A stretch of DNA of 64,000 nt from Bacteroidota bacterium (lineage in GTDB: Bacteria; Bacteroidota; Bacteroidia; Flavobacteriales; Flavobacteriaceae). Made by a program: the position numbers and the translations under genes. How positions within the stretch are numbered: position 1 is the stretch's first letter; each line of letters opens with the position of its first letter. The DNA is taken from NCBI GenBank assembly GCA_051748125.1, contig JBNJHC010000008.1:43975-107974 (forward strand), in the 5' to 3' direction. Positions 5,160-45,717 of this stretch are shown one piece after another. The notes under the pieces were generated by a model. The model worked only from the letters and a program-made list of their open reading frames with translations. It searched no databases and was not told where the DNA came from.

Positions 5160-5233
5160 TGACCGCGGGAGGATTCGAACCCCCAACCCTCAGAGCCGAA
5201 ATCTGATATTCTATCCAGTTGAACTACGCGGCC
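5160..5233 (-). tRNA. tRNA-Arg (anticodon UCG)
   Basis: Cloverleaf read by eye on the minus strand. Acceptor GGCCGCG/CGCGGTC; D arm GTTC..GAAT; anticodon stem TCAGA/TCTGA with loop TTTCGGC; T arm GGGGG-TTCGAAT-CCTCC. CCA is not encoded. Confidence 0.85.
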
Positions 5234-10980: not shown

Positions 10981-11781
10981 ATGAAAAAATCCGCTTTAGC
11001 GTTGTTTATATTGACTTTACTATTCATGTCTTCATGTATAGGTCCTAAGAAATTGATTTACCTTCAGCAAGATGAAGATAGTGAAGCTGCTCAAGATTCG
11101 CTATTAACGCTGCAAGAAGTACAAAAACCTTACCGCGTTCAAGTCAATGATATTTTGAGTATTCGGGTAAAGGCAATCGATCAGGAATTGGTTGGGATGT
11201 TTAACCCGATAGACGATTCTAATGCCGATGCCACTACCGAAGAAAAAGCTTATTTCGACGGTTACCGCATCGATAGGCGAGGGGAAATCCGCATTCCAAC
11301 GATGGGGAAGCTCAAAGTGGTGGGAATGACACTTGAAGAAATAGAAACCCTTATTGAAAAGGAGTTGCTAGAGAGTTATTTCACCGAAAAAGCCAACTTG
11401 TTTGTTACCGTCAAATTGCCGGGTATTCGCTATACCACAATGGGTGAAATTGGTTCGCCTGGCGGACAAGTGGTTTATAAACAGCAAGTAAGCATAATGG
11501 AAGCCTTGGCAAATTCGGGTGATATTTTAATGACAGGCGATCGAAAAAATGTAAAGATATTGCGACAATATCCTGAGGGAAAACGAATTCACCACATCGA
11601 CTTAACGTCTATAGATGCAGTCAATTCGCCTTATTATTACATTCAACCAAACGATTTGATTTTGGTTAATCCGTTGCCACAAAAATCCTACGGAATCGGT
11701 ACCGATGGATTTGGAACATTAGCAACGGTACTCGGATTAGTTTCTACGGTAGCAATATTAATTTGGAGATTTAATAGGTAA
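10981..11781 (+). CDS. wza: Polysaccharide export outer-membrane protein (Wza family)
   Basis: Lipoprotein-type signal (LLFMSSCIG), Poly_export-like PYRVQVNDILSIRV, and an SLBB-like segment. The stop overlaps the wzc start. Confidence 0.85.
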   Translation: MKKSALALFILTLLFMSSCIGPKKLIYLQQDEDSEAAQDSLLTLQEVQKPYRVQVNDILSIRVKAIDQELVGMFNPIDDSNADATTEEKAYFDGYRIDRRGEIRIPTMGKLKVVGMTLEEIETLIEKELLESYFTEKANLFVTVKLPGIRYTTMGEIGSPGGQVVYKQQVSIMEALANSGDILMTGDRKNVKILRQYPEGKRIHHIDLTSIDAVNSPYYYIQPNDLILVNPLPQKSYGIGTDGFGTLATVLGLVSTVAILIWRFNR

Positions 11782-14240
11782 TGCAAGACGAAGAATTTAG
11801 CATAGATGAATCAACTGTCAATTTCGATTTTAAAGGATTTCTCTTTAAAATACTAAGTTATTGGTGGCTGTTTTTAATCAGTATCATTATAGGTTTAGGC
11901 GTTGCTTATTACATTAGTGTCCGAAAATTACCCGTATATCAACTTTCGAGTTTAATTGCGGTTAAAGATAATTCTAATCCTTTATTCACTTCCAATACTA
12001 GCCTAACTTTCAATTGGGGCGGCACTTCCAGTAAAGTCAATTCCACAGTTGTAACCTTACAAACCCGTACACACAACGAAAAGGTCGTCAAGGAATTAGA
12101 GTTTTACATCAATTACTTAAGGCAAGGCGAGTATCAGATTGAAGATGCCTACGGAAAAGTTCCTTTTGAAGTTCAATTAGATTCTTCTGCACTACAATTG
12201 CTTAACCAGCAATTTAAAATTCGGTTTGTGGACGAAAACAGCTTCGAATTAATTTTTGAAACGGAAGAAGCATTTGGCGGAAAGCTTTATAATTATTACA
12301 CCGAAGATGAAGTTCAAACCCATTTTATCGCTCAGGATTTTATTAAGGAATACAAATTTGGCGAAAAAATTGAAACGCCATTTTTCAACGGAATTATTAA
12401 TCGTTCTAATATTCCTGTTCAGCCTGGAAGCGAATATTTCTTTAGTTTTAGTCATTTGAATTCCGTCGTCAGCACCTACCAAAATATAATGGTCAATGCT
12501 GAAAAAGACAAAGGTTCTATTTTAAATTTGACCTTGCGTGGACAGAACAAAAAGCGCATTGTAGATTACCTCAATACCACCGTTGAAGTCTTGAGTCAAG
12601 ATATGTTGGATCGTAAAAATTTATTTGCTACGAAAACCATCAATTTTATCGATTCGATGTTAGTCGATCGTGCGCGTGATTTACGCGAAGTTCAAGATGA
12701 ACTAGACAGCTTTAAAACCGAACGGAATGTATTTGATTTAGATGCCGAAAGCGAGCAATACCGTACACGATTACTAGAACTTGATAAAGAAGAACGCGAA
12801 GTTCAAAAAAGCTTAAATTATTACGAAATATTAGAAGAGTATTTGCGTACCAGAAACGATTATTCAGATGTTCCTGCTCCTTCCGTTTCTGGAATTACCG
12901 AACCGAGTATTTCGAGTGCGGTCAATAAAATTATAGAACTTTCTGAGCAACGAAGCTCGTATCGTTATTCAGCAAAACCAGAAGCGCCTGTTATTTTTGA
13001 TGATATCGACCGTCAAATCGATGCAACCAAATCGGTTTTACTCGAAAATATCGAGTCTTCTCAAAAGTTATTGCAGCGTGAACTCAACAACATAAAAGCT
13101 GATATTTTTGAAATTGAAAACAAAGTCAGAGAACTGCCACAAGATCAGCAAGATTTACTAAAAATCGAGCGTCGCTATGAGCTTTCACAAGAAACCTATA
13201 ACCTGTTTTTATCCAAGAAAAATGAGGCGGGATTAATTCGTGCTGCTAATGTTTCAGATGTTATTGTAATCGATGAAGCCAAAGATGTTGGCAGCGGAAA
13301 AATCGGTCCTAACAATCAATTGAATTACGTTATGGCATTGTTGATTGGCGGTTTTGTGCCGTTGATATTTGTGTTTTTGTTAGTCATGCTCGACAACAAA
13401 GTCAACAACCCTAAAGACTTACTCAAAAACAGCCAAATCCCGATGCTTGGAGTCATTGGCAAAAGTTCTATTAAGGGGAATTTAGCGGTGCTAAAAAAAC
13501 CTAGAGGAGCTGTAGCTGAAAGTTTTCGAGCGATAAGAACCAGTTTGAAATTTACGTTTAAACAAAAAGAAGACAACAGCTCTAAAGTGTTGATGAGTAC
13601 TTCGTCCATTTCTGGGGAAGGAAAAACCTTTACGGCTATCAACTTGGCTTCGGTGTTTTCGTTAAGCGGAAAGAAAACAGTTTTAGTGGGATTAGATTTG
13701 CGTAAACCTAAGATTTTTGATGATTTTGGAATCAATAACAAACTCGGTGTTGTTAATTATTTAATCGGTCATAATAGCCTAGATGAAGTTACCCAGTTTT
13801 CGGGTTATGATAATTTAGACCTTATTACTTCTGGTCCTGTACCACCTAATCCATCCGAATTATTAATGGATGATCGAATGGATGAATTGATGACTTCGTT
13901 AAAAGAAAAATACGATTATATCATTTTAGATACGCCGCCAATAGGATTGGTTTCAGACGCTTTAAACCTCGTAAAACACGTTGATGCCACATTGTATTTG
14001 GTTAGACAGAACTACACCAAAAAAGCCATGCTAAATGTGATTAATGATAAGTATCATTCTGGCGAAATAAAAAACATAAGTTTCTTGTTGAATTACTTCG
14101 AGCAAAAAGCGAAATATGGCTATGGTTACGGATATGGCTACGGCTATGGTTACGGCTACGGCTATGGAAAATATGGCGATGCTTACCTCAAACGCGATAA
14201 AAAACGCAGTTGGATCAGGCGAATTCTTACAGGGAAGTGA
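11781..14240 (+). CDS. wzc: Chain-length determinant / tyrosine autokinase (Wzc/GumC-like)
   Basis: 819 aa. Two TM segments flank a long coiled periplasmic region. C-terminal P-loop ATPase (STSSISGEGKTFTA, ILDTPP) and a Tyr-rich tail (YG repeat). Confidence 0.85.
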   Translation: MQDEEFSIDESTVNFDFKGFLFKILSYWWLFLISIIIGLGVAYYISVRKLPVYQLSSLIAVKDNSNPLFTSNTSLTFNWGGTSSKVNSTVVTLQTRTHNEKVVKELEFYINYLRQGEYQIEDAYGKVPFEVQLDSSALQLLNQQFKIRFVDENSFELIFETEEAFGGKLYNYYTEDEVQTHFIAQDFIKEYKFGEKIETPFFNGIINRSNIPVQPGSEYFFSFSHLNSVVSTYQNIMVNAEKDKGSILNLTLRGQNKKRIVDYLNTTVEVLSQDMLDRKNLFATKTINFIDSMLVDRARDLREVQDELDSFKTERNVFDLDAESEQYRTRLLELDKEEREVQKSLNYYEILEEYLRTRNDYSDVPAPSVSGITEPSISSAVNKIIELSEQRSSYRYSAKPEAPVIFDDIDRQIDATKSVLLENIESSQKLLQRELNNIKADIFEIENKVRELPQDQQDLLKIERRYELSQETYNLFLSKKNEAGLIRAANVSDVIVIDEAKDVGSGKIGPNNQLNYVMALLIGGFVPLIFVFLLVMLDNKVNNPKDLLKNSQIPMLGVIGKSSIKGNLAVLKKPRGAVAESFRAIRTSLKFTFKQKEDNSSKVLMSTSSISGEGKTFTAINLASVFSLSGKKTVLVGLDLRKPKIFDDFGINNKLGVVNYLIGHNSLDEVTQFSGYDNLDLITSGPVPPNPSELLMDDRMDELMTSLKEKYDYIILDTPPIGLVSDALNLVKHVDATLYLVRQNYTKKAMLNVINDKYHSGEIKNISFLLNYFEQKAKYGYGYGYGYGYGYGYGYGKYGDAYLKRDKKRSWIRRILTGK

Positions 14241-14244
14241 TTTT

Positions 14245-14560
14245 CAATTTTGAAATGCGAAATAATAATTTTGAATTTTGAAATGTGAATTGTAAACGGT
14301 TCTCAACACTTCAACTTCACTCAGTGCCGGCAATCTCGAACTTGAAACAGGAGAGAAACAAAAAAAGGAAAGCCGAACTTGAAGCATATAAAATTATAGC
14401 TAAAAGCAATACATTGATGTTTAGCTTCGAGCCTCTCAATTCTTCGAGATAAACTCAGTCGAGAAGTGGCTCATTTCAGACTCTTTAACTTGACAGGTTG
14501 GGAGAATCAAAGCGATTTGAAATAATAATTTTGAATTGATAATTTTGAAATTTGAACTAC
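14245..14560. repeat. Family A composite repeat, copy 1
   Basis: Aligns nearly base-for-base with 15402-15735. Made of a TGAATTT word array, the module ggttctcaacacttcaacttcactcagtgccggcaatctcgaacttgaaaca, and the core ttagcttcgagcctctcaattcttcgagataaactcagtcgagaagtg at 14421-14468. Confidence 0.9.
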
Positions 14561-14628: not shown

Positions 14629-14925
14629 ATGAAACGAATTATTGCGAAAAGTACGCTGAGAGAATTTTGGGAAAAACACGCTGATTCCGAACAGTATTTG
14701 AAAACTTGGTATGATACTGCTAAAAGTGCTAACTGGTTTTCTCCAAATGATGTAAAGCAGACTTATGTTTCAGTAAGTATTCTAAAAAATGGTCGAGTTG
14801 TTTTCAATATAAAAGGAAACTCTTATCGGCTTGTAGTTAAATTTAACTATGAAAAACAATGGGCGTTTATTCGATTTATTGGAACTCATCCTGAATATGA
14901 TAAAATAAACGCTGACACGATTTAA
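14629..14925 (+). CDS. higB: Type II toxin HigB-family mRNA interferase
   Basis: MKRIIAKSTLREFWEKH..NSYRLVVKFNYEKQWAFIRFIGTHPEYDKI matches the HigB_toxin pattern. ATG at 14629 preferred over the listed TTG. Confidence 0.8.
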   Translation: MKRIIAKSTLREFWEKHADSEQYLKTWYDTAKSANWFSPNDVKQTYVSVSILKNGRVVFNIKGNSYRLVVKFNYEKQWAFIRFIGTHPEYDKINADTI

Positions 14926-14937
14926 ACAAAATTGATT

Positions 14938-15312
14938 ATGGATTTAAGACCTATTAAAAACGAGAAAGACTACCGAAACGCACTTGAACGTTTGGAAGTG
15001 ATTTTTGATGCTCCAATTGATACAAAAGAAGGTGATGAAGCTGAAATTTTATCATTGATGATCGAAAATTATGAAAATGAACACTATCCAATCGAGTCAC
15101 CAGATCCAATCGAAGCGATAAAAATACGTATGGAAGAATTGAATTTGCGTCAAAAGGACTTAGTAGGGGTAATTGGCGGAAAGAGCCGAGTATCTGAAAT
15201 CTTAAATCGTAAAAAGAAGTTGACTGTTGAAATGATTAGAGAATTAGAACGCTTACTCCAAATTTCAGCTTCAGTTTTAGTCAATAACTATCAACTTGTT
15301 AAAAAACAATAA
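14938..15312 (+). CDS. higA: HigA-family antitoxin (HTH)
   Basis: Lies 12 bp downstream of higB. C-terminal HTH-like segment (LRQKDLVGVIGGKSRVSEILNRKKKLTVEMIRELERLL), typical of HigA partners. Confidence 0.75.
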   Translation: MDLRPIKNEKDYRNALERLEVIFDAPIDTKEGDEAEILSLMIENYENEHYPIESPDPIEAIKIRMEELNLRQKDLVGVIGGKSRVSEILNRKKKLTVEMIRELERLLQISASVLVNNYQLVKKQ

Positions 15313-15401
15313 GGGGTAACAATTCATAATTGTAATTAGTAAATTGAAAAAACCTCGGAGGCTGAGTGACTCGATGGTAATCGAGTTGTACCGAAGTCAA
15401 A

Positions 15402-15735
15402 GAATTTTGAATTGCGAAATAATAATTTTGAATTTTGAAATGTGAATTGTAAACGGTTCTCGACACTTTGACTTCGCTCAATGCTGGCAAGCTCGAACTT
15501 GAAACAAAGGAGGGACTCGAACTTGAAACAGGAGAGAAACAAAAAAAAAGGAAAGCCGAACTTGAAACATATAAAATTATAGCTAAAAGCAATACATTGA
15601 TGTTTAGCTTCGAGCCTCTCAATTCTTCGAGATAAACTCAGTCGAGAAGTGGCTCATTTCAAACTCTTTAACTTGACAGGTTGGGAGAATCAAAGCGATT
15701 TGAAATAATAATTTTGAAATCTGAACTGTCAAATT
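15402..15735. repeat. Family A composite repeat, copy 2
   Basis: Direct repeat of 14245-14560 with one extra ctcgaacttgaaac sub-unit. Core at 15604-15651. Confidence 0.9.
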
Positions 15736-15910
15736 TGAATTTTGAACTATCAAATGTAAAATACAAAGCCCTAAAAAATCCCTTTGTATAAAAAATTGTA
15801 GAACTAAAGAATATCTGTATTTTTGGGAAAAATTAATCAATAGCAAGTAAATTAATCAATGTTATGAAAAACAATATGATACCTTGCTTTATAACATCTT
15901 TTGAAATCTT

Positions 15911-17191
15911 ATGGAATATAAAATAGCGATCATCGGTTTGGGGTATGTGGGCTTGCCATTGGCAGTTGCATTTGCTGAAAAATACGAAGTTATTGGTTTT
16001 GATATCAATCAAAGTCGGGTAGATGAATTGGCGAAAGGCCACGATCATACGCTGGAAGTAGCGGATGAAGATCTGCAAAAAGTGCTTCAGCAGAAAGGTC
16101 AGTTTGGTTTAAAAGTTACTGCTAATCCTGATGATTTGGTTGCGGCAAATTTTTATGTCGTTACGGTGCCAACACCAACGGATAAAAATCGCCAGCCTGT
16201 TTTAACGCCATTGATTAAAGCTAGTGAAACCATCGGGAAACAGCTTCAAAAGGATGATATTGTCGTGTATGAATCTACGGTGTATCCTGGCGTAACGGAA
16301 GATGTTTGCGTGCCGGTGTTAGAAGAATTTTCAGGAATGACTTTTAATCAGGATTTTTATGTGGGCTATTCCCCTGAACGCATTAACCCAGGTGATAAAA
16401 AACACACGGTTACCAAAATTTTGAAAGTAACTTCTGGGTCAACTCCAGAAATTGCTGAGCGAGTTGATGAAGTCTATAAAAGTGTTATCACTGCTGGAAC
16501 GCATTTGGCTTCTTCCATAAAGGTAGCTGAGGCGGCTAAAGTGATTGAAAACTCACAACGGGATATCAATATCGCTTTTGTAAATGAACTCTCTAAAATA
16601 TTTCGATTATTAGCTATCGATACCGATGATGTACTGGAAGCGGCTGCTACGAAATGGAATTTTATCAAATTCACTCCCGGATTGGTTGGAGGACATTGCA
16701 TTGGAGTAGATCCGTATTATTTAGCCCAAAAAGCACAAGAAGTCGGTTATAACCCAGAAATCATTCTTTCAGGGAGAAGAATGAACGACGGAATGGGACG
16801 TTATGTAGCTAACGAAGTCATTAAATTGATGCTAAACAACGAGGCTAAAGTCAAAAATGGTAAAGCCTTGGTGTTGGGAATCACTTTCAAAGAAAATTGT
16901 CCCGACACACGGAATACGAAAGCAATTGATGTCATCGACGAGCTAAAAGCTTACAACATGGAAGTTGATGTTTGCGATCCGTGGGCAAATCCAGCTGAGG
17001 TAAAAGAACTTTTTGATATCGATTTAATCAGTAACTGCAAAGATTTAACCGAAACCTATGAAGCAGTTGTATTGGCCGTTTCTCACGAAGAATTTTTAGA
17101 ACTGGATTATTCCCGTTTAACAAACGATAAAGGAGTGGTTTTTGATGTAAAATCAATTCTACCAAAACACATCGTAGACGGAAGACTGTAG
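15911..17191 (+). CDS. Nucleotide-sugar 6-dehydrogenase (UDP-GlcNAc/ManNAc dehydrogenase-like, TviB/WbpO type)
   Basis: N-terminal IAIIGLGYVGLPLAVAF Rossmann motif, catalytic GGHCIGVDPYY, 426 aa. Confidence 0.9.
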   Translation: MEYKIAIIGLGYVGLPLAVAFAEKYEVIGFDINQSRVDELAKGHDHTLEVADEDLQKVLQQKGQFGLKVTANPDDLVAANFYVVTVPTPTDKNRQPVLTPLIKASETIGKQLQKDDIVVYESTVYPGVTEDVCVPVLEEFSGMTFNQDFYVGYSPERINPGDKKHTVTKILKVTSGSTPEIAERVDEVYKSVITAGTHLASSIKVAEAAKVIENSQRDINIAFVNELSKIFRLLAIDTDDVLEAAATKWNFIKFTPGLVGGHCIGVDPYYLAQKAQEVGYNPEIILSGRRMNDGMGRYVANEVIKLMLNNEAKVKNGKALVLGITFKENCPDTRNTKAIDVIDELKAYNMEVDVCDPWANPAEVKELFDIDLISNCKDLTETYEAVVLAVSHEEFLELDYSRLTNDKGVVFDVKSILPKHIVDGRL

Positions 17192-17221: not shown

Positions 17222-17258
17222 TTAGCGGTTGGTTTGAAGCATTCAAGTCAACCGCTAA
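17222..17258 (+). terminator. Hairpin downstream of the dehydrogenase gene
   Basis: ttagcggttg..caaccgctaa, a 9-10 bp perfect stem. The T tract after it is weak. Confidence 0.35.
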
Positions 17259-17428
17259 ACTGTTTATAGACGTGTTTTGTAAGCGTTAAAATAATTAAGA
17301 AAATGCCCTTGTAATTTTTTCCATTTTCTGTATTAACTCCTATATTTGAGCTTTCAATAATGAATCATTTTCGCACAGTAAGCCAATCAAAAATGGGACT
17401 TGCTGCGGCGAAGCCGTGGAGAGTTTTG

Positions 17429-17640
17429 GTCGCTGACGCTCCCGTTGTGGGGTTCGCCTCGCTTCGCTTGCTCACTGTTATGGGGTTGCTATCGCAACTG
17501 TTTAGGCGATAGATTTGATTTCAAAATACGATTTAGGTACTAAGCATAACAAATTACAACAGCGAGCTTTGCGAGCACCACAACAGCAGATAAGCGCAGC
17601 GATATCTGCCCCACAACAGAAACCGAAGGTTTCCTACAAC
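17429..17640. repeat. Family X GC-rich palindromic element, copy 1 (short form)
   Basis: GTTGTGGGG/GTTATGGGG words on the left and CCACAACAG/CCCCACAACAG on the right, around a conserved AT-rich centre (gcgatagatttgatttcaaaatacgatttaggtac). Confidence 0.85.
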
Positions 17641-17706
17641 ACTTTTTGAAGTTAAGCCAAATTGTATAAAACAGATTAAAGTTGTATTTTTACTAAAAAT
17701 CAAGTT

Positions 17707-17934
17707 ATGAAAAGGGATGTGCTTATTAGTCAAACAATAAAAAAAATCAAGCAATTACCTGATTACAGACTAAAAGAAGTCAATAGTTATGTTGATTTTT
17801 TATTGAGTAAAATTGATGATCAGATTCTGTTAGAGAATATTAAAGATTTGTCAATGCAATCAGATTCATTTGATTTTTTAAATGATGATGAAGAATTATA
17901 TGAGGTTTCTGATGTTAAGGAACATTACCAATGA
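17707..17934 (+). CDS. Putative antitoxin of the adjacent PemK/MazF toxin
   Basis: 75-aa ORF overlapping the toxin start by 4 nt. Small acidic C-terminus. Assignment rests on position only. Confidence 0.6.
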   Translation: MKRDVLISQTIKKIKQLPDYRLKEVNSYVDFLLSKIDDQILLENIKDLSMQSDSFDFLNDDEELYEVSDVKEHYQ

Positions 17935-18260
17935 GAAAAGGAGACATTGTTTTAATTCCATTTCCTTTTTCTGATTTGACAGGAACAAAAAAACGACCAG
18001 CTGTAATTTTACTTAATGCTGCTGATGATGTGGTGTTATGTTTTATCACTTCACAGTTAAAATGGAAATCTGAATATGATTTAACACTCATGCCATCTGA
18101 AAAAAATGGTATTAAAAAAGAATCTATCATTCGCATAACGAAGTTGGTAACTTTAAGCAAAGATCTTGTTATTGGTAAACTAGGAGAGCTTGACCAAGAA
18201 GAAACTCTTCTTTTAAATAAAAATATAATAAGAGCTTTTAGGCTAAATAACAGCGAGTAA
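17931..18260 (+). CDS. mazF: PemK/MazF-family type II toxin
   Basis: MRKGDIVLIPFPFSDLTGTKKRPAVIL is the hallmark MazF/PemK N-terminus. 109 aa. Confidence 0.85.
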   Translation: MRKGDIVLIPFPFSDLTGTKKRPAVILLNAADDVVLCFITSQLKWKSEYDLTLMPSEKNGIKKESIIRITKLVTLSKDLVIGKLGELDQEETLLLNKNIIRAFRLNNSE

Positions 18261-18552
18261 TGTTGTTAGGTCGCTGGTGCTCTCGTTGTGGGGTTCGCCT
18301 CGCTTCGCTTGCTCACTGTTGTGGGGTCGCTGGCGCTCCTGTTGTGTTGCGCCTTTCGGCGCGTTGTGGGTTGCTATCGCAACTGTTTAGGCGATAGATT
18401 TGATTTCAAAATACGGATTTTAGGTACAGAGCATAACAAATAACAACAGCGAGCTTTGCGAGCACCATAACAGGCAACTTGTTGCCGCCACAACAGCAGA
18501 TAAGCGCAGCGATATCTGCCCCACAACAGAAACCGAAGGTTTCCCACAACAC
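18261..18552. repeat. Family X GC-rich palindromic element, copy 2 (long form)
   Basis: About five GTTGTGG-type words with 13-23 nt spacers, the same AT-rich centre, then about five CCACAAC-type words. Spacers are mini-hairpins (gcgcc-tttc-ggcgc, ggcaac-tt-gttgcc, gcagata..tatctgc, gaaacc-gaa-ggtttc). Confidence 0.9.
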
Positions 18553-18653
18553 TTTTTGAAGTTAAGCCAAATTACATAAAACAGATTAAAGTTATATTTC
18601 TACTAAAAATCAAATTATGAAAAGGGATGCTTCAAGAATTTATGGACTAATCA

Positions 18654-20021
18654 ATGAATAAAAAAACATTAGAGCATATCATCAATACTGGTGAAACAAC
18701 AACTGTTGAGTTTAAAACAAACTTTAACAATGAAGTTGTTGAAACATTAGTAGCATTTGCAAATGCGCAAGGCGGTAAGGTGTTGATTGGGATATCAAAT
18801 GACAAAAATGTTGTTGGGGTTTCATTACAAGAAGAATCTGTTCAAAACTGGATAAATGAGATTAAACAAAAAACAGCGCCAAGCCTTATACCTGATGCAG
18901 ATGTTTTGGAAATAGCGTTTAAAAAAGTATTGGTTTTTACCATAAAAGAATACCCTATTAAACCTGTTTCATTTAGAGGGAGATATTACAAACGTATGGC
19001 AAACGCTAATCATTTATTAAGTGTAGAAGAAGTTGTTAATATGCACTTGCAAACTATCAATTCTAGCTGGGATTACCACACCAATAATTACTCTAAAATA
19101 GATGATATTTCTTTTGAAAAAGTACAATCAGCCATCGAAGTTATAAACAAAAATGGAACAATCATAAATGAAGATCCTATTAATTTTTTGTTTAAGAAAG
19201 ATCTTATAAAAAATGAAAAACTCACCAATGCAGCTTTTTTACTTTTTACAAAAAAGGATACAGTTATCACTACTGTAGAACTGGGACGTTTTCAAACCTC
19301 CATCATTATAAAAGATAACGACCGCTCACAAACAGACTTGATTGCTCAAGTCAATCAAATTATCGGTTTTGTAGAGAAACATATCAATAAAGCTATTATT
19401 ATTACGGGCAAAGCACAGCATACCCAAGAGTGGCAGTACCCTATGGAAGCCATAAGAGAAATAGTTTTGAATATGGTAGTGCACAGGGATTATCGAGATA
19501 CAGCAGATTCTATTGTCAAAATTTTTGACGACTATATAGAGTTTTTTAACCCTGGTAGGTTGCCCGAAAACATAAGCGAAAAAGATTTAATAGAAAACAC
19601 TTATACATCGACGCCTCGAAATAAGTTAATTGCCGATATATTTAGAAGTATGGGGCTTATAGAAAAATATGGTTCTGGTATAAGGCGTATTATTAATTAT
19701 TGTACTGAAGCGGGATTACCAAAGCCTACTTTTCAAAACCAAGGGAATGGTTTTTTAGTAAGGGTATATGGAAAAAAGGCAGAAAATGTCGTAGAAAATG
19801 TCGTAGAAAATGTCGCAGAAAATGTCGCAGAAAATGAAAAAAAGATATTAAGGCTTATAGATAATAATTCTAAATATTCTGCTAAGCAAATGTCAAAACT
19901 ACTTGGTCTTACACAAAGAACTGTGCAAAGATACCTCAAGGAACTGCAAACTAAAAATATAATAGAAAGAATCGGTCCCGCTAAAGGTGGTTATTGGCAT
20001 ATTAACAAAAATAATGACTAA
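18654..20021 (+). CDS. AlbA_2 (Schlafen-like) DNA-binding plus HATPase_c_4-type ATP-binding protein with a C-terminal wHTH
   Basis: N-terminus GETTTVEFKTNFNNEVVETLVAFANAQGGKVLIG is the AlbA_2/divergent-AAA signature. The C-terminal ..LGLTQRTVQRYLKELQ is HTH-like. Confidence 0.75.
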   Translation: MNKKTLEHIINTGETTTVEFKTNFNNEVVETLVAFANAQGGKVLIGISNDKNVVGVSLQEESVQNWINEIKQKTAPSLIPDADVLEIAFKKVLVFTIKEYPIKPVSFRGRYYKRMANANHLLSVEEVVNMHLQTINSSWDYHTNNYSKIDDISFEKVQSAIEVINKNGTIINEDPINFLFKKDLIKNEKLTNAAFLLFTKKDTVITTVELGRFQTSIIIKDNDRSQTDLIAQVNQIIGFVEKHINKAIIITGKAQHTQEWQYPMEAIREIVLNMVVHRDYRDTADSIVKIFDDYIEFFNPGRLPENISEKDLIENTYTSTPRNKLIADIFRSMGLIEKYGSGIRRIINYCTEAGLPKPTFQNQGNGFLVRVYGKKAENVVENVVENVAENVAENEKKILRLIDNNSKYSAKQMSKLLGLTQRTVQRYLKELQTKNIIERIGPAKGGYWHINKNND

Positions 20022-20050
20022 CCGTATAAACAAATTAAAACACTTAGAAA

Positions 20051-20332
20051 GTTGTGATGTTCGCCTCGCTTCGCTTGCTCACTGTTGTGGGGTCGCTGAC
20101 GCTCCTGTTGTGTTGCGCCTTTCGGCGCGTTGTGGGGTTGCTGTCGCAACTGTTTAGGCGATAGATTTGAATTCAAAATACGATTTTAGGTACAGAGCAT
20201 AACAAATAACAACAGCGAGCTTTGCGAGCACCACAACAGCAGATAAGCGTAGCGATATCTGCCCCACAACAGAAACCAAAGGTTTCCCCACAACAGGGAG
20301 GGAGCGCAAGCAACCCGACCACCACAACAATA
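20051..20332. repeat. Family X GC-rich palindromic element, copy 3
   Basis: Same word/spacer architecture and centre as copies 1-2. Ends 14 bp before the wzm ATG. Confidence 0.9.
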
Positions 20333-20345
20333 AGATAACACACAA

Positions 20346-21209
20346 ATGAATAAATCACAATCCAAGGACTGGCTTTACGAAATCAATTCAGAAAAAAGCT
20401 TATTCGATTTTAATTTTAAGGAAATATGGCGGTACAAAGACCTCTTGTTTCTCTTTGTAAAACGCGATATTGTTACGGTTTATAAACAGACTGTTTTAGG
20501 ACCGCTTTGGTTTTTGATTCAACCGTTATTTACTTCGGTTATTTTTACACTTGTGTTTAATAATGTAGCCAGTATTCAGACAGGTACGGTTCCTAATTTT
20601 TTGTTCAACTTAGCGGGAATTACCGCTTGGACGTACTTTAAAGAATGCCTAACTGGAACTTCCAATACCTTTACAAAAAATGCGGGAATCTTTGGTAAAG
20701 TCTATTTTCCGAGAGTAATTATGCCAATGTCGATTACCGTCTCTAACCTGTTGAAACTCGGTATTCAACTGAGTATTTTTACGGGTTTTTATATCTTTTA
20801 TGTCGCTACAGGAAGTAGCGCTTCACCTAATTTTCATTTAGTGCTTTTTCCTGTTTATGTGTTTATGATGGGAATGACAGGTTTAGGACTGGGAATGATT
20901 CTTTCAGCTATGACCACTAAATACCGCGATTTAACAGTACTTATTGGTTTTGGTGTGCAGTTATTGATGTATATATCAGCAGTACCTTTTCCGATGAGTG
21001 AAATTTTAGAACGCAAACCCGAATTTTTCTGGGTGTTTAAATACAATCCGTTAGCTCAAATTATAGAAGGATTTCGTTACATGACACTAGATACTGGCTT
21101 ATTTACATGGGGCGGATTTTTCTATGCGCTGGTATTTTCTATCGTCGTATTTTTTATCGGATTAGGAATTTTTAATCGAACAGAGAAGAGTTTTGTGGAT
21201 ACGGTTTAG
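20346..21209 (+). CDS. wzm: ABC-2 type polysaccharide/O-antigen exporter permease
   Basis: 287 aa, six hydrophobic segments, and the typical N-terminus (LFLFVKRDIVTVYKQTVLGPLWFLIQPL). Confidence 0.85.
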   Translation: MNKSQSKDWLYEINSEKSLFDFNFKEIWRYKDLLFLFVKRDIVTVYKQTVLGPLWFLIQPLFTSVIFTLVFNNVASIQTGTVPNFLFNLAGITAWTYFKECLTGTSNTFTKNAGIFGKVYFPRVIMPMSITVSNLLKLGIQLSIFTGFYIFYVATGSSASPNFHLVLFPVYVFMMGMTGLGLGMILSAMTTKYRDLTVLIGFGVQLLMYISAVPFPMSEILERKPEFFWVFKYNPLAQIIEGFRYMTLDTGLFTWGGFFYALVFSIVVFFIGLGIFNRTEKSFVDTV

Positions 21210-21210
21210 C

Positions 21211-21690
21211 GTAATGGAGGAATGGTGTAATGGAAGAATGGAGGAATAGAGGAATAGTGTAATGGAGGAATGGTATAATAGAGGAATAGTGTAATGGGGG
21301 AATAGTGTAATGGAAGAATGGTGTAATGGAAAAATGGTATAATAGAGGAATGGTGTAATGGGAGAATGGTGTAATAGAGGAATAGTGTAATGGGAGAATG
21401 GTGTAATGGAAGAATAGTGTAATGGAAGAATAGTGTAATGGAGGAATGGTATAATAGAGGAATAGTGTAATGGGAGAATGGTGTAATGGAAGAATAGTGT
21501 AATGGGAGAATAGTGTAATGGGAGAATAGTGTAATGGAAAAATGGTGTAATAGAGGAATGGTGTAATGGGAGAATAGTGTAATGGAGGAATGGTATAATA
21601 GAGGAATGGTGTAATGGGAGAATGGTGTAAAGGAAGAATAGAGTAGTAGTGTAATGGAATAATGGAGTAATTGAAGAATGGTAGTCAAGT
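21211..21690. repeat. Degenerate 8-bp (16-bp super-unit) tandem array, GAATGGTG/TAATGGAA type
   Basis: About 60 consecutive 8-bp units, pattern NAATRGNR, read directly. The reverse complement (CCATTACA/CCATTCTT) is related to the right-hand array. Confidence 0.95.
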
Positions 21691-21772
21691 AGTAGTTTAA
21701 TAGAAAGTTAGTGTATTAAATGTGTAGAAAAAACAAAAATAAACTTAATTGTATTAAGTATAATTTTATCTT

Positions 21773-21938
21773 ACCACTATACCACTATACCACTATACCA
21801 CTATACCACTATACCACTATACCACTATACCACTATACCACTATACCACTATACCACTATACCACTATACCACTACACCACTACACCACTATACCACTAT
21901 ACCACTACACCACTACACCACTACACCACTACACCACT
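21773..21938. repeat. 8-bp tandem array CCACTATA / CCACTACA (about 21 units)
   Basis: Near-perfect period-8 repeat. Ends 18 bp before the wzt ATG. Confidence 0.95.
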
Positions 21939-21956
21939 AATAACTGAAATAAACAA

Positions 21957-23228
21957 ATGAACAACATCATACTAAAAGCCGAAAACATCTCCAAACAATA
22001 CCGACTTGGCTTGGTAGGGACGGGGACGTTGAGTCACGATTTAAATCGTTGGTGGCATCAAATACGGGGGAAAGAAGACCCTTATTTAAAAATTGGTGCG
22101 GAGAACGACCGCAGTAAAAAAGCGGAAACCGATTACGTCTGGGCATTGCGGGATATTAACTTTGATGTCTATGATGGCGATGTACTGGGTATTATTGGAA
22201 AAAATGGCGCGGGTAAATCTACCTTGCTCAAAATTTTATCGCGGGTAACTACGCCGACTACAGGAAGCATTAAAACCAAAGGACGTATTGCTTCTTTACT
22301 AGAAGTAGGTACGGGCTTTCATCCTGAATTAACGGGTCGAGAAAATATTTACCTCAATGGCGCTATTTTGGGGATGACCAAAAGTGAAATTAAAGCCAAG
22401 GAAGAAGAAATAATAGATTTCTCAGGTTGTGCCATGTATATTGATACGCCCGTAAAACGCTATTCCTCAGGAATGCGGGTGCGATTAGCTTTTGCCGTTG
22501 CTGCCCATTTAGAACCCGATATTTTGGTGGTAGATGAAGTCCTAGCCGTAGGTGATGCCGAATTCCAAAAGAAAGCCATTGGCAAAATGAAAGATATTTC
22601 AGGTAACGATGGCAGAACGGTTTTGTTTGTGAGCCATAACATGGCAGCGGTGAAAAGCTTGTGTACACGAGGGATTGTGTTGGAGAATGGAACTTCTGTT
22701 TTTGAAGGGACAGCAGAGGAGTGTGTAAGTTATTATTTGAAAGATGGAAAATCTGAAGCTAATAATGAAAGAGTATTTAAAAATGTAGAAAAGAATGATG
22801 TTTTTAAGCTAAATTCAATTTCGGTTTCAAATGCAGGGAGAAGTTTTGGAGAGCCGATTGTAGAAGACGAGGAAGTTCATTTAAAAACTTCTGTTTACAT
22901 AGAAAAAGAACCAGAGCGCTATCATATTACTTATCATTTATATAACGAACTAGGAGAAGCTATGTTTAGTCTGTCTAACAGAAGGGCAGATGTAAATCTA
23001 GTTAATGGTGTAAATCATCTTGTCTGTAAATTTCCAAAAGGGTTTTTACAGCCAGGTAATTTTTCATTAAAATTTCTACTTGTGAAAGATAGAAAAAAAG
23101 CTATTTACATAGAAGACTCTATTGTTAGTTTTACAGTAGTAAATGCCGGTAGAGAACTTGGGGTTTATATGGGGAAAGAACCTGGTTTTATTATACCTAA
23201 TTTAGAATGGAAACAAGACAATAAATGA
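21957..23228 (+). CDS. wzt: Polysaccharide ABC exporter ATP-binding protein with a C-terminal extension
   Basis: Walker A GKNGAGKST, signature YSSGMRVRLAFA, Walker B ILVVDE. An extra C-terminal domain of about 170 aa, as in Wzt proteins with a glycan-terminus-binding module. Confidence 0.9.
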   Translation: MNNIILKAENISKQYRLGLVGTGTLSHDLNRWWHQIRGKEDPYLKIGAENDRSKKAETDYVWALRDINFDVYDGDVLGIIGKNGAGKSTLLKILSRVTTPTTGSIKTKGRIASLLEVGTGFHPELTGRENIYLNGAILGMTKSEIKAKEEEIIDFSGCAMYIDTPVKRYSSGMRVRLAFAVAAHLEPDILVVDEVLAVGDAEFQKKAIGKMKDISGNDGRTVLFVSHNMAAVKSLCTRGIVLENGTSVFEGTAEECVSYYLKDGKSEANNERVFKNVEKNDVFKLNSISVSNAGRSFGEPIVEDEEVHLKTSVYIEKEPERYHITYHLYNELGEAMFSLSNRRADVNLVNGVNHLVCKFPKGFLQPGNFSLKFLLVKDRKKAIYIEDSIVSFTVVNAGRELGVYMGKEPGFIIPNLEWKQDNK

Positions 23229-30267: not shown

Positions 30268-30559
30268 AAAATTTAATTTTTAAAAATTTATTATTAATAG
30301 TTCTAAAATCCCGGTGAGTAGAAGTGGCTACCACCTCATAATTAAGTAGAACTAAGCTTAATTATTTCTCAATTTTTGCACTAAAACTTTATTTCATTCG
30401 CATTATTTTTTGTTTTAACTGCAAATATATGAGCTATATGTCTTAAACCCTGTACAAGAAAATAGAGTTTACGGGCAAAATAAATGAATTTACTCAGTTA
30501 TTTTGCAAGTCATTGGTAGTTAGTCTGTTGTCTGTTAATTTTTAATTTTTAATTTTGAA

Positions 30560-31290
30560 ATAATAATTTTGAATTGTGAAATTTGAATTGTGAATTGGAA
30601 AAGTCAAAAAATCAGTGACCAACATTCTCAGGGTAAACAATACTGTTTAACTTCGAGCCTCTCAATTCTTCGAGATAAACTCAGTCGAGAAGTGTCAGTT
30701 GTTCTCGACTCCGCTCGAACTTGAAACAAAGATGTAACTCGAACTTCAAACAAAAGTAGAAGCTCGAACCTGCAACAAAGAATAGTTTAAGTAAAATCGG
30801 TACTTGACCCTTCGATATTGCTCAGTTTAACTTCTATACTGTTTAGCTTCGAGCCTCTCAATTCTTCGAGATAAACTCAGTCGAGAAGTGTCAGTTGTTC
30901 TCGACTCCGCTCGAACTTGAAACAAAGATGTAACTCGAACTTGAAACAAGAGCGAAACAAAAAAAAAGAAATCCGAACTTGAAGCATATAAAATTATAGC
31001 TAAAAGCAACACAATACTGTTTAGCTTCGAGCCTCTCAATTCTTCGAGATAAACTCAGTCGAGAAGTGTCAGTTGTTCTCGACTCCGCTCGAACTTGAAA
31101 CAATTGACGTTTCGTTTATCTTCGAGCTAGTTTATACTGAGTCCTCAATCCTTCGGGATAAACTCCGTCGAGAAGTAGCTGGTTCTTGAAACTTCAATTC
31201 AATATTTCAAGCCCTTGAACTAAATTAAGGTGAAAAAGTTGGGAGAGTTGAAATGGTAATTTTGAATTTTGAAATGTATTCGGAGTAGAA
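30560..31290. repeat. Cluster of family A modules (three full cores plus one degenerate)
   Basis: Core ttagcttcgagcctctcaattcttcgagataaactcagtcgagaagtg at 30647-30694 (one mismatch, ttaac for ttagc), 30843-30890 and 31021-31068. A diverged copy lies at about 31114-31178. Confidence 0.9.
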
Positions 31291-31329
31291 TAAATTTTTT
31301 CGTAAATTTGAATTTAAAGAAAATTAATA

Positions 31330-31548
31330 ATGGATATTCAAACAACAAAACTTGAACTCTTAAAAACTATTATGGATAATGAAAACGCTGAATTTATCCA
31401 AAGAGTTGCTGATTTTGTTAAAAAGGAAAAAACTGACTTTTGGGACGAATTAAGCCTATCTGAACAAAAAGAAATTAAACAAGGAATAAGCGAATTGAAT
31501 GAAGGAAAAAGAGTATCGTATGAATCCTTTTTGAATAAAATTTCTTGA
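31330..31548 (+). CDS. Putative antitoxin of the ParE/RelE-like toxin
   Basis: 72 aa, overlaps the toxin start by 4 nt. Same family as 33251-33487 (shared ..SEQKEIKQGISELNEGKRVSYESF.. pattern). Confidence 0.6.
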   Translation: MDIQTTKLELLKTIMDNENAEFIQRVADFVKKEKTDFWDELSLSEQKEIKQGISELNEGKRVSYESFLNKIS

Positions 31549-31856
31549 TGAAAGTATTTTTATCTGAACTTGCCGAATCAAAACTTATTAAATTATCTGA
31601 GTACTTGTTAGAAAACTGGAACCTAAAAACTCGTGATAAGTTTATTTCAAAGTTGACTGATAAAATAAAACAAATATCTATTCAACCAAATAGTTGCCCA
31701 CAATCAACTGAATTTAATGGGTTTTATAAATGTGTAGTAACTAAACAAACTACTTTTTATTACAGAATATTAAATGAAGAAGATGAGATAGAGATTATCA
31801 CAATTTTTGACACTAGACAAAATCCTAACGAATTAAAAAAAGACATTGAATTTTGA
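31545..31856 (+). CDS. RelE/ParE-family type II toxin
   Basis: 103 aa with the family-typical C-terminal IEIITIFDTRQNP. Confidence 0.8.
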   Translation: MMKVFLSELAESKLIKLSEYLLENWNLKTRDKFISKLTDKIKQISIQPNSCPQSTEFNGFYKCVVTKQTTFYYRILNEEDEIEIITIFDTRQNPNELKKDIEF

Positions 31857-32087
31857 AATAGCAAATATGAAATCTGAAATATGAATTTTGAATTTTGAAA
31901 TGTAAAATGTAAACGGTTCTCGAAACTTCAACTTCGCTCAGAATAGACTTCTTCACTGTTTAGCTTCGAGCCTCTCAATTCTTCGAGATAAACTCAGTCG
32001 AGAAGTGTCAGTTGTTCTCGACTTCGCTCAAACTTGAAACAAAGAAAAGCTTGAGTTGAAACATTTTTTTTTGAAAGAGCAGTTTAA

Positions 32088-32528
32088 ATGAAAAAAGAAA
32101 AGTATAAATATTCTGCTGAGAAGGAATTGATGTATTTTGAGTTCTTTAGTGTTGGTCCAAAAGGAGAGATTAAAAAGGTTATTGAATTTTCAGAGACCAA
32201 CGTTAAAGATGTTTATAATCTTGCTTTTGGTGATTTTGACGAAAAAACACAGCGAATAAGTGACAGTGTTGTGACCAATAATGGCGATAGCTTAAAAGTA
32301 CTTGCAACAGTGGCATCTTCTGTTTATGCGTTTACAGCTGAACGAACTGACGCCTGGGTTTTTGCGACAGGAAGCACTGCTGTTAGAACAAGGTTATACC
32401 GTATGGGATTAACGAACAACCTGGCTGAGGTCTCTAAAGACTTTCACATATATGGTTTAAAGGACGATAAGTGGGAAGATTTCTTAATCGGGGAAGATTA
32501 CGAAGCTTTTTTAGTCAAACGAAAATAG
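32088..32528 (+). CDS. Conserved hypothetical protein (resembles Bacteroidota DUF6934-type proteins; name from memory)
   Basis: 146 aa. The pattern FFSVGPKGEIKKVIEF..YNLAFGD..NNGDSLKVLATVASSVYAF..GSTAVRTRLYRMG is recalled from many Bacteroidota hypotheticals. Confidence 0.6.
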   Translation: MKKEKYKYSAEKELMYFEFFSVGPKGEIKKVIEFSETNVKDVYNLAFGDFDEKTQRISDSVVTNNGDSLKVLATVASSVYAFTAERTDAWVFATGSTAVRTRLYRMGLTNNLAEVSKDFHIYGLKDDKWEDFLIGEDYEAFLVKRK

Positions 32529-32541
32529 TTACATTTGTAGT

Positions 32542-32688
32542 ATGAATCCAAAAGACCTAAATAAGAAAAAAACACCGATTGTAAAAATCGATAAAGGACT
32601 CGAAAAGTATCGAGGTAAGGTTCTTTTTCCCAAAAAACTCAAGAAAGCTAACGAAATTCTTGACAGAGTTGGACTGCCTAAGGCTTAA
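32542..32688 (+). CDS. Small ORF (48 aa) coupled to the preceding gene
   Basis: Not in the ORF track because it is under 60 aa. ATG lies 13 bp after the upstream stop. Translates to MNPKDLNKKKTPIVKIDKGLEKYRGKVLFPKKLKKANEILDRVGLPKA. Confidence 0.4.
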   Translation: MNPKDLNKKKTPIVKIDKGLEKYRGKVLFPKKLKKANEILDRVGLPKA

Positions 32689-32740
32689 TAAGCACAAGTC
32701 CCTAATATCACCTAAATCTTTTTAGTACGTTCTCTTTCTG

Positions 32741-33205
32741 TTAACTGTTAATTTTGAAATGTAATAGGCTTTAAGCAGTAGGCTGTAGGCAGTAAGCAGT
32801 AGGCTGTAGGCTGAAATTGGTGAATGGTGATATCGGATTTTGAAATAATAATTGTGAATTTTGAAATGTAAAATGAAAAATGTAAACGGTTCTCGACACT
32901 TCAACTTCGCTCAGTGCTGGCAAGCTCGAACTTAAAACAAGAGCGAAACAAAAAAAAAGAAATCCGAACTTGAAGCATATAAAATTATAACTAAAAGCAA
33001 CACAATACTGTTTAGCTTCGAGCCTCTCAATTCTTCGAGATAAACTCAGTCGAGAAGTGTCAGTTGTTCTCGACTCCGCTCGAACTTGAAACAATTGACG
33101 TTTCGTTTATCTTCGAGCTAGTTTATACTGAGTCCTCAATTCTTCGAGATAAACTCAGTCGAGAAGTAGCTCATTTCAATCCCTTGAACTTGATAGGGTG
33201 GTTAA
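32741..33205. repeat. Family A composite with a GTAGGCT-type 7-bp word array
   Basis: gcagtag gctgtag gcagtaa gcagtag gctgtag array, then modules shared with 14245-14560. Core at 33012-33059, diverged core at about 33104-33170. Confidence 0.9.
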
Positions 33206-33250
33206 AATAAAAATCATTATTTTTGATAAACGGCAATAAATTAGATTGAA

Positions 33251-33487
33251 ATGGATTCGACTGCACACATAAAAAAGAACCTGATTTCAAGAATTAAGAA
33301 TTCAAAAGATTTGGATTTTTTAAAAGCGCTTCAGCAAATATTGGACACTTCCGAACAGGAGCTGTACCAATTATCAACCGAACAAAAAGAAGCAATTTCA
33401 AAAGGTAGCGAGCAAATCAAGAAAGGTCAATTTTCTAGTAACGAATCCGTAATTTCTGAAATGAAAGAATGGCTGTCAAAAAAATAA
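33251..33487 (+). CDS. Putative antitoxin of the ParE/RelE-like toxin (second copy)
   Basis: 78 aa, paralogous in pattern to 31330-31548. Overlaps the downstream toxin ORF. Confidence 0.6.
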   Translation: MDSTAHIKKNLISRIKNSKDLDFLKALQQILDTSEQELYQLSTEQKEAISKGSEQIKKGQFSSNESVISEMKEWLSKK

Positions 33488-33771
33488 TATGGTCAGCTTT
33501 AGCCAAATCGGAGTTTCGTGATATTCTTGAATTTTATACACGCAGAAACCAATCAGCTACCTACAGTCTAAAGCTTTTAGAAGAAACAGAAGAGGTATTA
33601 ACTACGCTGTCAAAAAATGAATTTATTGGGCGATTAACATCAAATAAAAAAACGCGCGTACTACCAATGAAAGCCTATTTGATTTTCTACGAGATAAACG
33701 AAAAGACCATCGAGATAGTTTCATCTGGGATAACCGGCAAGATCATAAAAAACGTAGGATTAGATAAATAA
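33469..33771 (+). CDS. RelE/ParE-family toxin with a probable frameshift in the C-terminal motif
   Basis: After ..IEIV the listed frame reads SSGITGKIIKNVGLDK. The frame starting at 33720 reads FIWDNRQDHKKRRIR*, the expected family ending (WDxRQ). Confidence 0.65.
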   Translation: MAVKKIIWSALAKSEFRDILEFYTRRNQSATYSLKLLEETEEVLTTLSKNEFIGRLTSNKKTRVLPMKAYLIFYEINEKTIEIVSSGITGKIIKNVGLDK

Positions 33772-34030
33772 CCAAGTATAATAGTAAGTTTTATAACTAA
33801 ACATATAGACAAGCTGAGTTGGATTTTGAATTTTTAATTGTGAATTTTGAATTTTCAATTATGAATTTTGAGTTTTGAATTGTGAATTTTGAGTTTTGAA
33901 ATATCACTGCCTGGACTTCGATACATCCGTCTTGGATGTTGAAATGTGAAATAGAAAATGCGTGAGGCGTTGGCAGTAACGGTAAAAAACCGTTTCCAAT
34001 AGCTAATTTCCGATATAAAAGCATAAATTT

Positions 34031-35812: not shown

Positions 35813-35814
35813 AT

Positions 35815-45710: not shown

Positions 45711-45717
45711 CTAAATA

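Follow-up and report, generated by a model that had tools for sequence, protein, structure and literature searches.

Family X, a mosaic palindromic repeat in the intergenic gaps of a Psychroflexus surface-polysaccharide operon

Intergenic palindromic and mosaic repeats form a broad known class in bacteria. BOX elements of Streptococcus pneumoniae, built as boxA-(boxB)n-boxC, occur in more than 100 dispersed copies; mycobacterial MIRUs are direct repeats carrying short open reading frames (ORFs) that overlap the neighbouring stop and start codons; and the attC sites of integrons, such as the VCRs of Vibrio, are 57–141 nt long, carry RYYYAAC ... GTTRRRY cores in that order and form arrays beside a tyrosine integrase gene (intI) and an attI site. 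In enterobacterial (E. coli) operons, repetitive extragenic palindromic (REP) units and the bacterial interspersed mosaic elements (BIMEs) made of them act as intercistronic stabilisers or insulators. A REP unit measures 20–65 nt, is imperfectly palindromic and carries the tetranucleotide GT[AG]G (or CGTC) at its foot (PMC3733652, PMC6006769). Here we analysed a stretch of 64,000 nucleotides of a Bacteroidota bacterium (the window; contig JBNJHC010000008.1, positions 43,975 to 107,974), whose host is Psychroflexus (GC 34%), and in it a repeat that we call Family X. Judged by its sequence, Family X is a real, genus-restricted and undescribed repeat family within the broad class named above; it is non-coding, clearly constrained in sequence, and combines words and hairpins in an unusual grammar.

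Family X is present in the window as three copies (c1–c3), each consisting of opposed arrays of a 10–11-nt word, (C)TGTTGTGGGG (W), around an AT-rich centre of about 50 nt. This layout had been proposed from the letters of the DNA (the original prediction), and it was borne out by word counts against shuffled sequences and by alignment. Allowing at most one mismatch, GTTGTGGGG matches the window 22 times versus 4.8 ± 2.3 times in shuffled sequences, and 22 matches were reached in 0 of 100 shuffles. Seventeen of the 22 lie inside the three copies, where the left halves hold the forward matches and the right halves the reverse ones. The alignment of c1–c3 has a mean column identity of 82% and the copies differ by whole units, in line with the predicted variation in unit number; c2 and c3 are 88% identical over 269 nt including unit insertions and deletions, and c2 and c1 are 80% identical over 240 nt. 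Their GC content is 47–50%, versus 33.7% for the window. The boundaries first given for c2 (18261–18552) held, and those of c1 (17429–17640) and c3 (20051–20332) were refined as follows, where S1 to S4 are the spacers between the words:

17428–17642: c1, the shortest copy; left arm 17428–17506 (S1-W-S2-W-S4-W), centre 17507–17552, right arm 17553–17642
18261–18552: c2; left arm 18261–18391 (W-S1-W-S2-W-S1-W-S3-W-S4-W), centre 18392–18440, right arm 18441–18552
20051–20329: c3; left arm 20051–20158, centre 20159–20205, right arm 20206–20329
17643–17719 and 18553–18629, + strand: 77-bp segment common to c1 and c2 (direct sequence reading and alignment)
17510–17517, 18395–18402 and 20162–20169, + strand: TAGATTTG, one in each centre (direct sequence reading)

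The spacers had been described as stretches of 13–23 nt in the left arm; they are not arbitrary and form a fixed series, S1 tcgctNNcgctcc (13 nt), S2 ttcgcctcgcttcgcttgctcac (23 nt), S3 gcgcc-tttc-ggcgc and S4 gttgc-tatc-gcaac. The left arm is built of tandem 56-nt doublets S1-W-S2-W (23 + 33 nt) followed by the two hairpin units S3 and S4, and the start-to-start spacing of the words is accordingly bimodal (22–24 nt in 26 cases, 33–34 nt in 20 cases; period 56 nt). The right arm holds a shorter inverted copy of the doublet (inverted S2 and S1) together with the small perfect palindromes ggcaac-tt-gttgcc and gaaacc-gaa-ggtttc. One additional unit (ggcaacttgttgcc) is present in the right arm of c2, and an additional outer unit (gggagggagcgcaagcaacccgacc) in that of c3. 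The statement that most spacers are self-complementary was correct for the five hairpin spacers then named (S3, S4, ggcaac-tt-gttgcc, gcagata-N10-tatctgc and gaaacc-gaa-ggtttc) and for these only; self-complementarity is absent from S1, S2, cgagctttgcgag and the outer spacer of c3. The hairpin spacers are 13–24 nt long and are flanked by CTGTTGTGGGG / CCCCACAACAG.

According to the original prediction the words of the two arms can pair with each other and the spacers cannot. The second half of this claim failed in part. A profile hidden Markov model of the left-arm doublet also detects the right arms, on the complementary strand (E = 1e-4 to 7e-4 in the window and 6e-6 in L116, a relative described below); on c1, for example, it matches 17429–17486 (+) with E = 2e-13 and 17619–17577 (-) with E = 6.5e-4. 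The minimum-energy fold of c2, moreover, contains base pairs between a portion of the S2 region and a portion of the spacer gcagataagcgcagcgatatctg in the right arm.

The ends of the elements are ragged, starting with S1 or W and ending with W' or S1'. The 77-bp segment that c1 and c2 have in common past their ends comprises the region upstream of an antitoxin ORF and the first 13 nt of that ORF (ATGAAAAGGGATG), which means that the duplicated unit exceeds the element. A miniature inverted-repeat transposable element was considered and rejected on account of the ragged ends, which do not form defined terminal inverted repeats, and since no flanking target duplication is visible at any of seven insertion points. 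A coding role was likewise rejected: ORFs of 50–63 aa cross the arms, but the arms are A-poor and thus hold few stop codons, and the 56-nt period (units of 22–24 and 33–34 nt, not a multiple of 3) shifts the frame, so that the arms are non-coding. Likenesses to DnaA boxes (CCACA) and to ops (CGGTAGCG, in one unit of the relative's element e2) were seen by eye only and are taken as chance. Most S1-, S2- and S4-type units contain GCG(N1-2)AGC on their CA-rich strand, the motif of extraordinarily stable DNA mini-hairpins (PMC13037366). The looser GCG(N0-2)AGC has 37 matches in the window, 19 of them in the three elements; 3 of these 19 are right-arm GCGAGC without a loop base, and the other 16 are GCG(N1-2)AGC. 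Since the motif is also a trivial outcome of AGCG direct repeats, it is a lead only.

The elements occupy gaps between same-strand genes and, where they abut core genes, stand near both neighbours. The window locus is an ABC-transporter-type surface-polysaccharide operon with the following genes (Pfam, unless stated otherwise):

10981–14240: Wza/Wzc-like genes of the polysaccharide export and synthesis cluster
15911–17191, + strand: UDP-glucose/GDP-mannose dehydrogenase (Ugd), the upstream core gene
17707–17934, + strand: DUF2281-like antitoxin, 75 aa, bracketed by c1 and c2
17931–18260, + strand: PemK/MazF toxin, 109 aa, bracketed by c1 and c2
18654–20021, + strand: AlbA_2 / HATPase_c_4 / winged-HTH protein, 455 aa (Pfam, NCBIfam), bracketed by c2 and c3
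20346–21209, + strand: ABC-2 polysaccharide-export permease, the downstream core gene; its ATG lies 16 nt after the end of c3
21957–23228: Wzt-type ATPase

The window permease, which shares 90% identity with its counterparts in P. planctonicus and P. salis, served to identify the host and was the anchor for fetching the syntenic loci of relatives. Compared with the pair at the same slot in P. planctonicus, the two toxin-antitoxin proteins reach only 45% and 57% identity, versus 90% for the neighbouring permease, and the sequences thus indicate that the pair at the c1–c2 slot is non-orthologous between sister species and subject to cassette turnover. The nearest database homologue of the MazF protein is 64% identical, with an uninformative context, and an exact-protein look-up returned no identical sequence on record for the AlbA_2 and MazF proteins. 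The domain scan (Pfam, NCBIfam) covered 50 window ORFs; the seven ORFs outside it lie for the most part in the 23–58 kb region. Among the 50 there was no recombinase, integrase or transposase domain, and the suggested look for a REP-associated tyrosine transposase (RAYT) of the TnpA type, the Y1 (IS200-like) gene that REP units flank in a REPtron, gave no Y1 enzyme among them.

The original prediction would have been reduced to one local duplication if other copies did not keep the word and spacer architecture. This did not hold: the same word and spacer order was found at four slots in another Psychroflexus lineage. A metagenomic Psychroflexus from an Antarctic lake (permease 85% identical) carries four homologous elements in the same operon. 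Three of them (e1–e3; L116 8886–9355, 10223–10672 and 11050–11580) occupy slots around the permease and a 23S_rRNA_IVP gene; e2 extends from the permease stop codon to 11 nt short of the next ATG, and e3 begins at the stop codon of the IVP gene. The fourth slot (e4) is found some 13 kb further downstream, flanked by an AsnS-like gene and a glycosyltransferase gene, and on one contig (L123), where all genes are on one strand, the copy at this slot is opposite in orientation to e3. The order S1, S2, S3, S4 and the inverted S2'/S1' are identical between the Antarctic elements and the window, and c3 is the positional counterpart of e1 and of a decayed copy in a further relative (L132). Over the window and the relatives the elements measure 215–650 nt and contain 5–20 words. 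Across 15 contigs, the arrays of the Antarctic population differ in length by steps of 56 nt, with 3 or 4 doublets in e2 and 5, 6 or 8 in e3. Direct copies bracket accessory genes (MazEF and AlbA_2 in the window, 23S_rRNA_IVP in L116), and elements also divide core genes (epimerase and permease, AsnS-like gene and GT1). An AT-rich insert of about 75 nt (gtgccgcactttgtgcgagcatgctcgtaaaattacataaattgaaaat...) is common to e1 (L116 8950–9030) and e4 (L131 9480–9560), where it interrupts the left arms.

Outside the 3-kb cluster, the 64-kb window holds no further copy by word search, sensitive blastn or the doublet profile. A metagenome-wide scan with S2+W (TCGCTTCGCTTGNNNNCTGTTGTG, exact 20 bases) matched 10 contigs, one by chance and nine mapping to this operon at the four slots. 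Taking this exact 20-base pattern together with about 150 kb of Psychroflexus loci and the 64-kb window, no copy was seen elsewhere, and Family X thus appears to be operon-confined. A scan of a genome collection with the lineage-specific centre 19-mer GTTTAGGCGATAGATTTGA gave 3 matches (Synechococcus, Christensenella and one metagenome-assembled genome) with no words nearby, approximately the number estimated for chance. Among viral contigs, 110 stretches have two words 10–30 nt apart and none of them has opposed arrays; blastn against plasmids and phages gave no match. At Rfam gathering thresholds the window contains only a tRNA (5160–5233), and at E ≤ 10 the region 17300–20400 gives only chance snoRNA and sRNA matches inside coding genes. 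The original prediction had recognised no described family, and indeed no Rfam family matches the elements and we found no repeat of such kind described for Psychroflexus or Flavobacteriaceae in the literature; nothing points to a stand-alone structured RNA gene, which it had offered as one possibility. Its other suggestion, a recombination substrate of single-stranded DNA, may still apply.

Between the lineages the arms are 72–83% identical (e.g. 77% over 127 nt, E = 9e-22, window versus relative), approximately the conservation of the neighbouring coding DNA (72–76%), whereas ugd and the permease have only 30–35% identity at four-fold degenerate sites between the window and L116, which amounts to saturation. 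Three hairpins show compensatory changes: gcgcc/ggcgc to gtgcc/ggcac, gcagata/tatctgc to gcaagt/acttgc, and ggaagc/gcttcc to ggcaac/gttgcc. Given the conserved arms in spite of saturated four-fold sites and the paired hairpin substitutions, purely neutral persistence is unlikely; the arms have probably either been maintained by selection, whether acting on the host or on propagation of the element itself, or been exchanged more recently than the flanking genes. Copies from the same genome resemble one another far more closely than copies from different lineages do. The centre, predicted to be conserved, is so among the three window copies only, and the centres of the window and Antarctic elements are not alignable.

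In its general features Family X resembles REP units, BIMEs and REPINs (E. coli BIME-2 and the Pseudomonas REPINs, mobilised by RAYT/TnpA-REP), which are likewise extragenic, relatively GC-rich and often inside operons, form tandem and inverted mosaics of short units with strain-variable unit number, fold into a long hairpin through inverted units, place a short conserved sequence beside compensating hairpin stems, and differ in family from species to species. The likening of Family X to a BIME-type REP cluster therefore stands for its extragenic, mosaic and palindromic character and its variable units. It does not stand for the conserved GTAG or CGTC tag, dispersed copies and RAYT, none of which was seen in the sequences covered. 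In Family X the flank is a 10–11-nt word, the units within an arm are direct and do not alternate, and there is no sequence similarity; 3–4 copies are seen in one operon, versus tens to hundreds of dispersed REP copies. Like BOX, Family X is modular and non-coding, with partly complementary terminal modules, a variable number of internal repeats and stable stem-loops predicted in transcripts; unlike BOX, it appears operon-confined, repeats a 56-nt doublet on one side of the palindrome and is unrelated in sequence. With MIRUs it has in common tandem repeats of about 50 nt in the gene gaps of operons and strain-polymorphic copy number, but its 56-nt period is not a multiple of 3 and its layout is palindromic. 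As in attC sites, imperfect palindromes lie between small accessory genes including toxin-antitoxin pairs, direct copies bracket the cassettes, and the structure is partly more conserved than the sequence. In contrast to attC, the order in Family X is GTTGTGG ... CCACAAC (reverse polarity) with a T and not a purine at core position 5, the elements are 2–5 times longer and multi-unit, they also stand between core genes of biosynthesis, the junction of the duplication falls beyond the element, and the scanned window ORFs include no integrase.

The suggested check of single-strand folding was positive: c1–c3 fold far better as DNA single strands than dinucleotide shuffles (z = -3.8 to -6.4). As RNA of the mRNA strand, from the stop codon to the next start, the seven elements fold with -70 to -197 kcal/mol (z = -4.0 to -8.0), and in 6 of the 7 there is pairing between the initial 40 nt and the final 60 nt. 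We favour, with a probability of roughly 45%, the reading that Family X is a constrained mosaic intergenic palindrome, resized and spread by recombination and slippage, that takes the form of a stop-to-start hairpin once transcribed with the operon. Arrays would lengthen and shorten by slipped-strand or unequal recombination, a process suggested by the observed 56-nt steps. New copies would arise locally by duplication or by recombination between copies, which would leave accessory genes between direct copies, and such genes would join the operon as a gene plus one element copy. The element would be transcribed within the operon, its arms pairing into a long branched hairpin from the stop codon to the next start, and this intercistronic stem-loop could stabilise or delimit mRNA segments and insulate the inserted genes. 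The conserved word and spacers would be held by selection, either for structure or for a recognising protein.

Several observations weigh against this reading. That the elements are transcribed with their neighbours is an assumption drawn from the gene arrangement, and a strong terminator-like hairpin with a 17-bp stem and a T-rich tail stands directly after ugd (17222–17258), upstream of c1; with this hairpin and a possible promoter in the centre, c1 may lie outside a read-through transcript. The ends of e4 are unpaired in its minimum-energy fold. The arms are very unbalanced, with 2–16 words on the left versus 3–8 on the right across elements and up to 16 left words against 4–5 right ones, so that most left-arm units are without a partner and the ladder-like stem first proposed is not a conserved structure. 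Arm mismatches, read by hand, show no preference for G-U over A-C and thus no RNA-specific signal. What is conserved is sequence and not pairing alone, which would suit protein recognition better than structure alone. Finally, P. planctonicus, P. salis and Psychroflexus sp. MBR-150 retain the operon but not Family X, which a further metagenomic relative also lacks at these slots; all four have other repeat families there. L132, whose permease is 90% identical, carries at the c3 slot a short copy in which, judged by eye, the words have decayed to AT-rich sequence and the hairpin spacers gcgccttcggtgc, gaaaccgaaggtttc (identical to the window) and ggagggagcgatagcgaaccgacc survive. Given these sister species and the decayed copy, any host function would be dispensable or replaceable.

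The same conservation could be the requirement of an enzyme and not a benefit to the host, if the word and its adjacent hairpin were the single-stranded DNA recognition and cleavage site of a distant HUH (Y1, RAYT-like) enzyme and Family X a replicator of the REPIN/BIME type. A conserved short sequence at the foot of compensating hairpins is indeed the grammar of REP units and IS200/IS605 ends, inverted doublets are able to fold like REPINs, the arms are conserved despite saturated neutral sites, the decayed L132 copy could be a dead one, and the GCG(N1-2)AGC mini-hairpin motif occurs in most S1-, S2- and S4-type units. TnpA-REP subclasses 2.4 and 2.6 are, in addition, common in Bacteroidetes, 2.6 with atypical GTAG-less structures (PMC6006769). 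We nevertheless consider such a replicator unlikely given that the 64 kb hold 3 copies only, all inside 3 kb, that the Antarctic population in the metagenome collection has four slots only, in one operon, that the scanned window ORFs include no Y1 transposase, that the element ends are ragged and that a GT[AG]G or CGTC tag is missing. Conservation of the 10–11-nt word and of S1/S2 beyond pairing, and confinement to one polysaccharide operon, would also be expected of arrays that bind an operon-specific protein on double-stranded or non-template DNA (a regulator, a nucleoid protein or a NusG paralogue at a "reloading" site), perhaps with the centre as a promoter module. Each window centre contains TAGATTTG, an exact match to TAnnTTTG, which we take to be the Bacteroidetes -7 promoter consensus, with TTG 21 nt upstream and pointing at the downstream gene; TAGATTTG may thus be a candidate rightward promoter, with chance occurrence estimated at about 7%. 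A similar TGAATTTG is present in the decayed L132 copy. Mini-hairpin motifs on the non-template strand of the right arm would fit binding as well. However, helical phasing of the words was rejected as the 23- and 33-bp spacings do not keep to one helix face, the unit number is highly variable, neither a NusG-like gene nor a dedicated regulator gene was seen at the start of the operon, and the -7 box is missing from the centres of all four Antarctic elements (L116, L131). Nor is there a sign of an invertible switch like the invertible promoters (invertons) of Bacteroidetes polysaccharide loci, in which a segment between inverted repeats occurs in both orientations within a population: the orientation of the centre relative to the S1 arm is constant in 15 of 15 contigs from several samples, although assemblies show the majority state only and could miss a rare inversion. 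On balance, binding arrays of this kind seem quite improbable.

The bracketing of accessory genes has its own candidate explanation, in which an accessory gene plus one copy is inserted or excised site-specifically at a recombination site of a cassette system (an attC or Xer/pdif analogue). The succession element, toxin-antitoxin, element, AlbA_2, element in the window and element, IVP, element in L116 have this look, as do other repeat families that bracket other accessory genes of the window (e.g. HigBA), the non-orthologous toxin-antitoxin pairs at the same slot in sister species, and an imperfect palindrome with conserved structure. Yet the 50 scanned window ORFs contain no integrase or recombinase, the elements separate core genes too, and the c1/c2 duplication runs 77 bp beyond the element into the antitoxin ORF, so that its junction is not at a fixed element site. 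The words are also GTTGTGG and not GTTRRRY, in a GTT...AAC layout that is the reverse of attC, the lengths are 215–650 nt against 57–141 nt for attC, and Rfam gives no match at gathering or E-value thresholds; only slight credence is therefore due to a cassette site. Nor do we put much weight on minisatellite-like junk, copied within one locus and without function. Every copy is in one operon, the unit number varies as in a variable-number tandem repeat, and the distribution among species is patchy with one decayed copy. Nonetheless the arms stay 72–83% identical across lineages in which 30–35% of four-fold sites are identical, the small hairpins change in a compensatory manner, and a GC content of 47–50% is upheld in a 34% GC genome; functionless duplication appears to be disfavoured by the arm conservation.

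Going further than the intercistronic hairpin that we prefer, the word-plus-mini-hairpin units might be docking sites for a dedicated putative protein on single-stranded or non-template DNA (an atypical Bacteroidetes HUH/Y1 or a NusG-type factor). They would then form an integrase-independent system in the polysaccharide operon that captures and insulates accessory genes (toxin-antitoxin, AlbA_2, 23S-IVP) with operon expression unbroken, a proposal that we regard as a long shot. If the preferred hairpin reading is true, long polysaccharide operons in these Flavobacteriia hold their own sequence-constrained intergenic modules, which vary in length between strains and accompany the gain of toxin-antitoxin and defence-type genes within the operon. 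This would be one route for surface-polysaccharide loci to diversify while remaining expressed, and REP/BIME-like biology would reach a phylum for which hardly any elements of this sort have been described. The variation in unit number by 56 nt could serve as a strain marker. The practical significance of Family X, with its putative function, is probably modest for now.

Other repeats and small genes were also seen at these loci. The ugd-permease interval is a hot spot for small selfish-type genes: in sister species, the place of the AlbA_2 gene is taken by small nuclease genes of the GIY-YIG or DUF559 (Vsr-like) type and by an epimerase (L114 7070–7826, L115 6742–7147, L132 6152–6412 and L133 5672–6433). 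In Psychroflexus sp. MBR-150, near-identical segments of about 130 nt lie on both sides of the permease (L135 9701–10000 and 10876–11177), with GGTAGTA/AGTGAAC-type heptamer arrays and CCCCTCTCCTTTGGAGAGGG hairpins; they represent a further family at the same slots. The entire gap between the permease and the Wzt ATPase in the window (21111–21950) is a tandem array of 8/16-nt period, which includes (TACCACTA)n at 21772–21947, and the same slot in relatives holds the IVP gene with flanking repeats.

A HigB/HTH-antitoxin cassette (14629–15312) is bracketed by direct repeats of about 320 bp from another family (window 14237–14556 and 15394–15739), which are 94% identical over 206 nt, contain TGAATTT heptamers and GTAAACGGTTCTCGACACTTCAACTTCGCTCAGTGC..., and have the same repeat-gene-repeat layout as Family X. 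Within the polysaccharide cluster, window 30500–35850 is a run of small accessory genes, with ParE-type toxin-antitoxin pairs (31330–31856 and 33251–33771), DUF6934 (32088–32528) and a YhcG PDDEXK nuclease (34031–35026), separated by several repeat families (117–247-nt units and (TGAATTG)n arrays). In three genomes the 23S_rRNA_IVP (bAvd-like) gene is closely bracketed by opposed arrays, of a different repeat family in each: window 45111–45210 and 45579–45748 (gene 45212–45556), with GTCGTCA/GTTGTCT and then AGACAGT heptamers; P. planctonicus (L114 10864–11254 and 11625–11760), with GTTGTCC and then AACCGAT heptamers; and the Antarctic relative (L116 10223–11580), with Family X. A GTTGT/ACAAC core is common to the IVP arrays of all three genomes.

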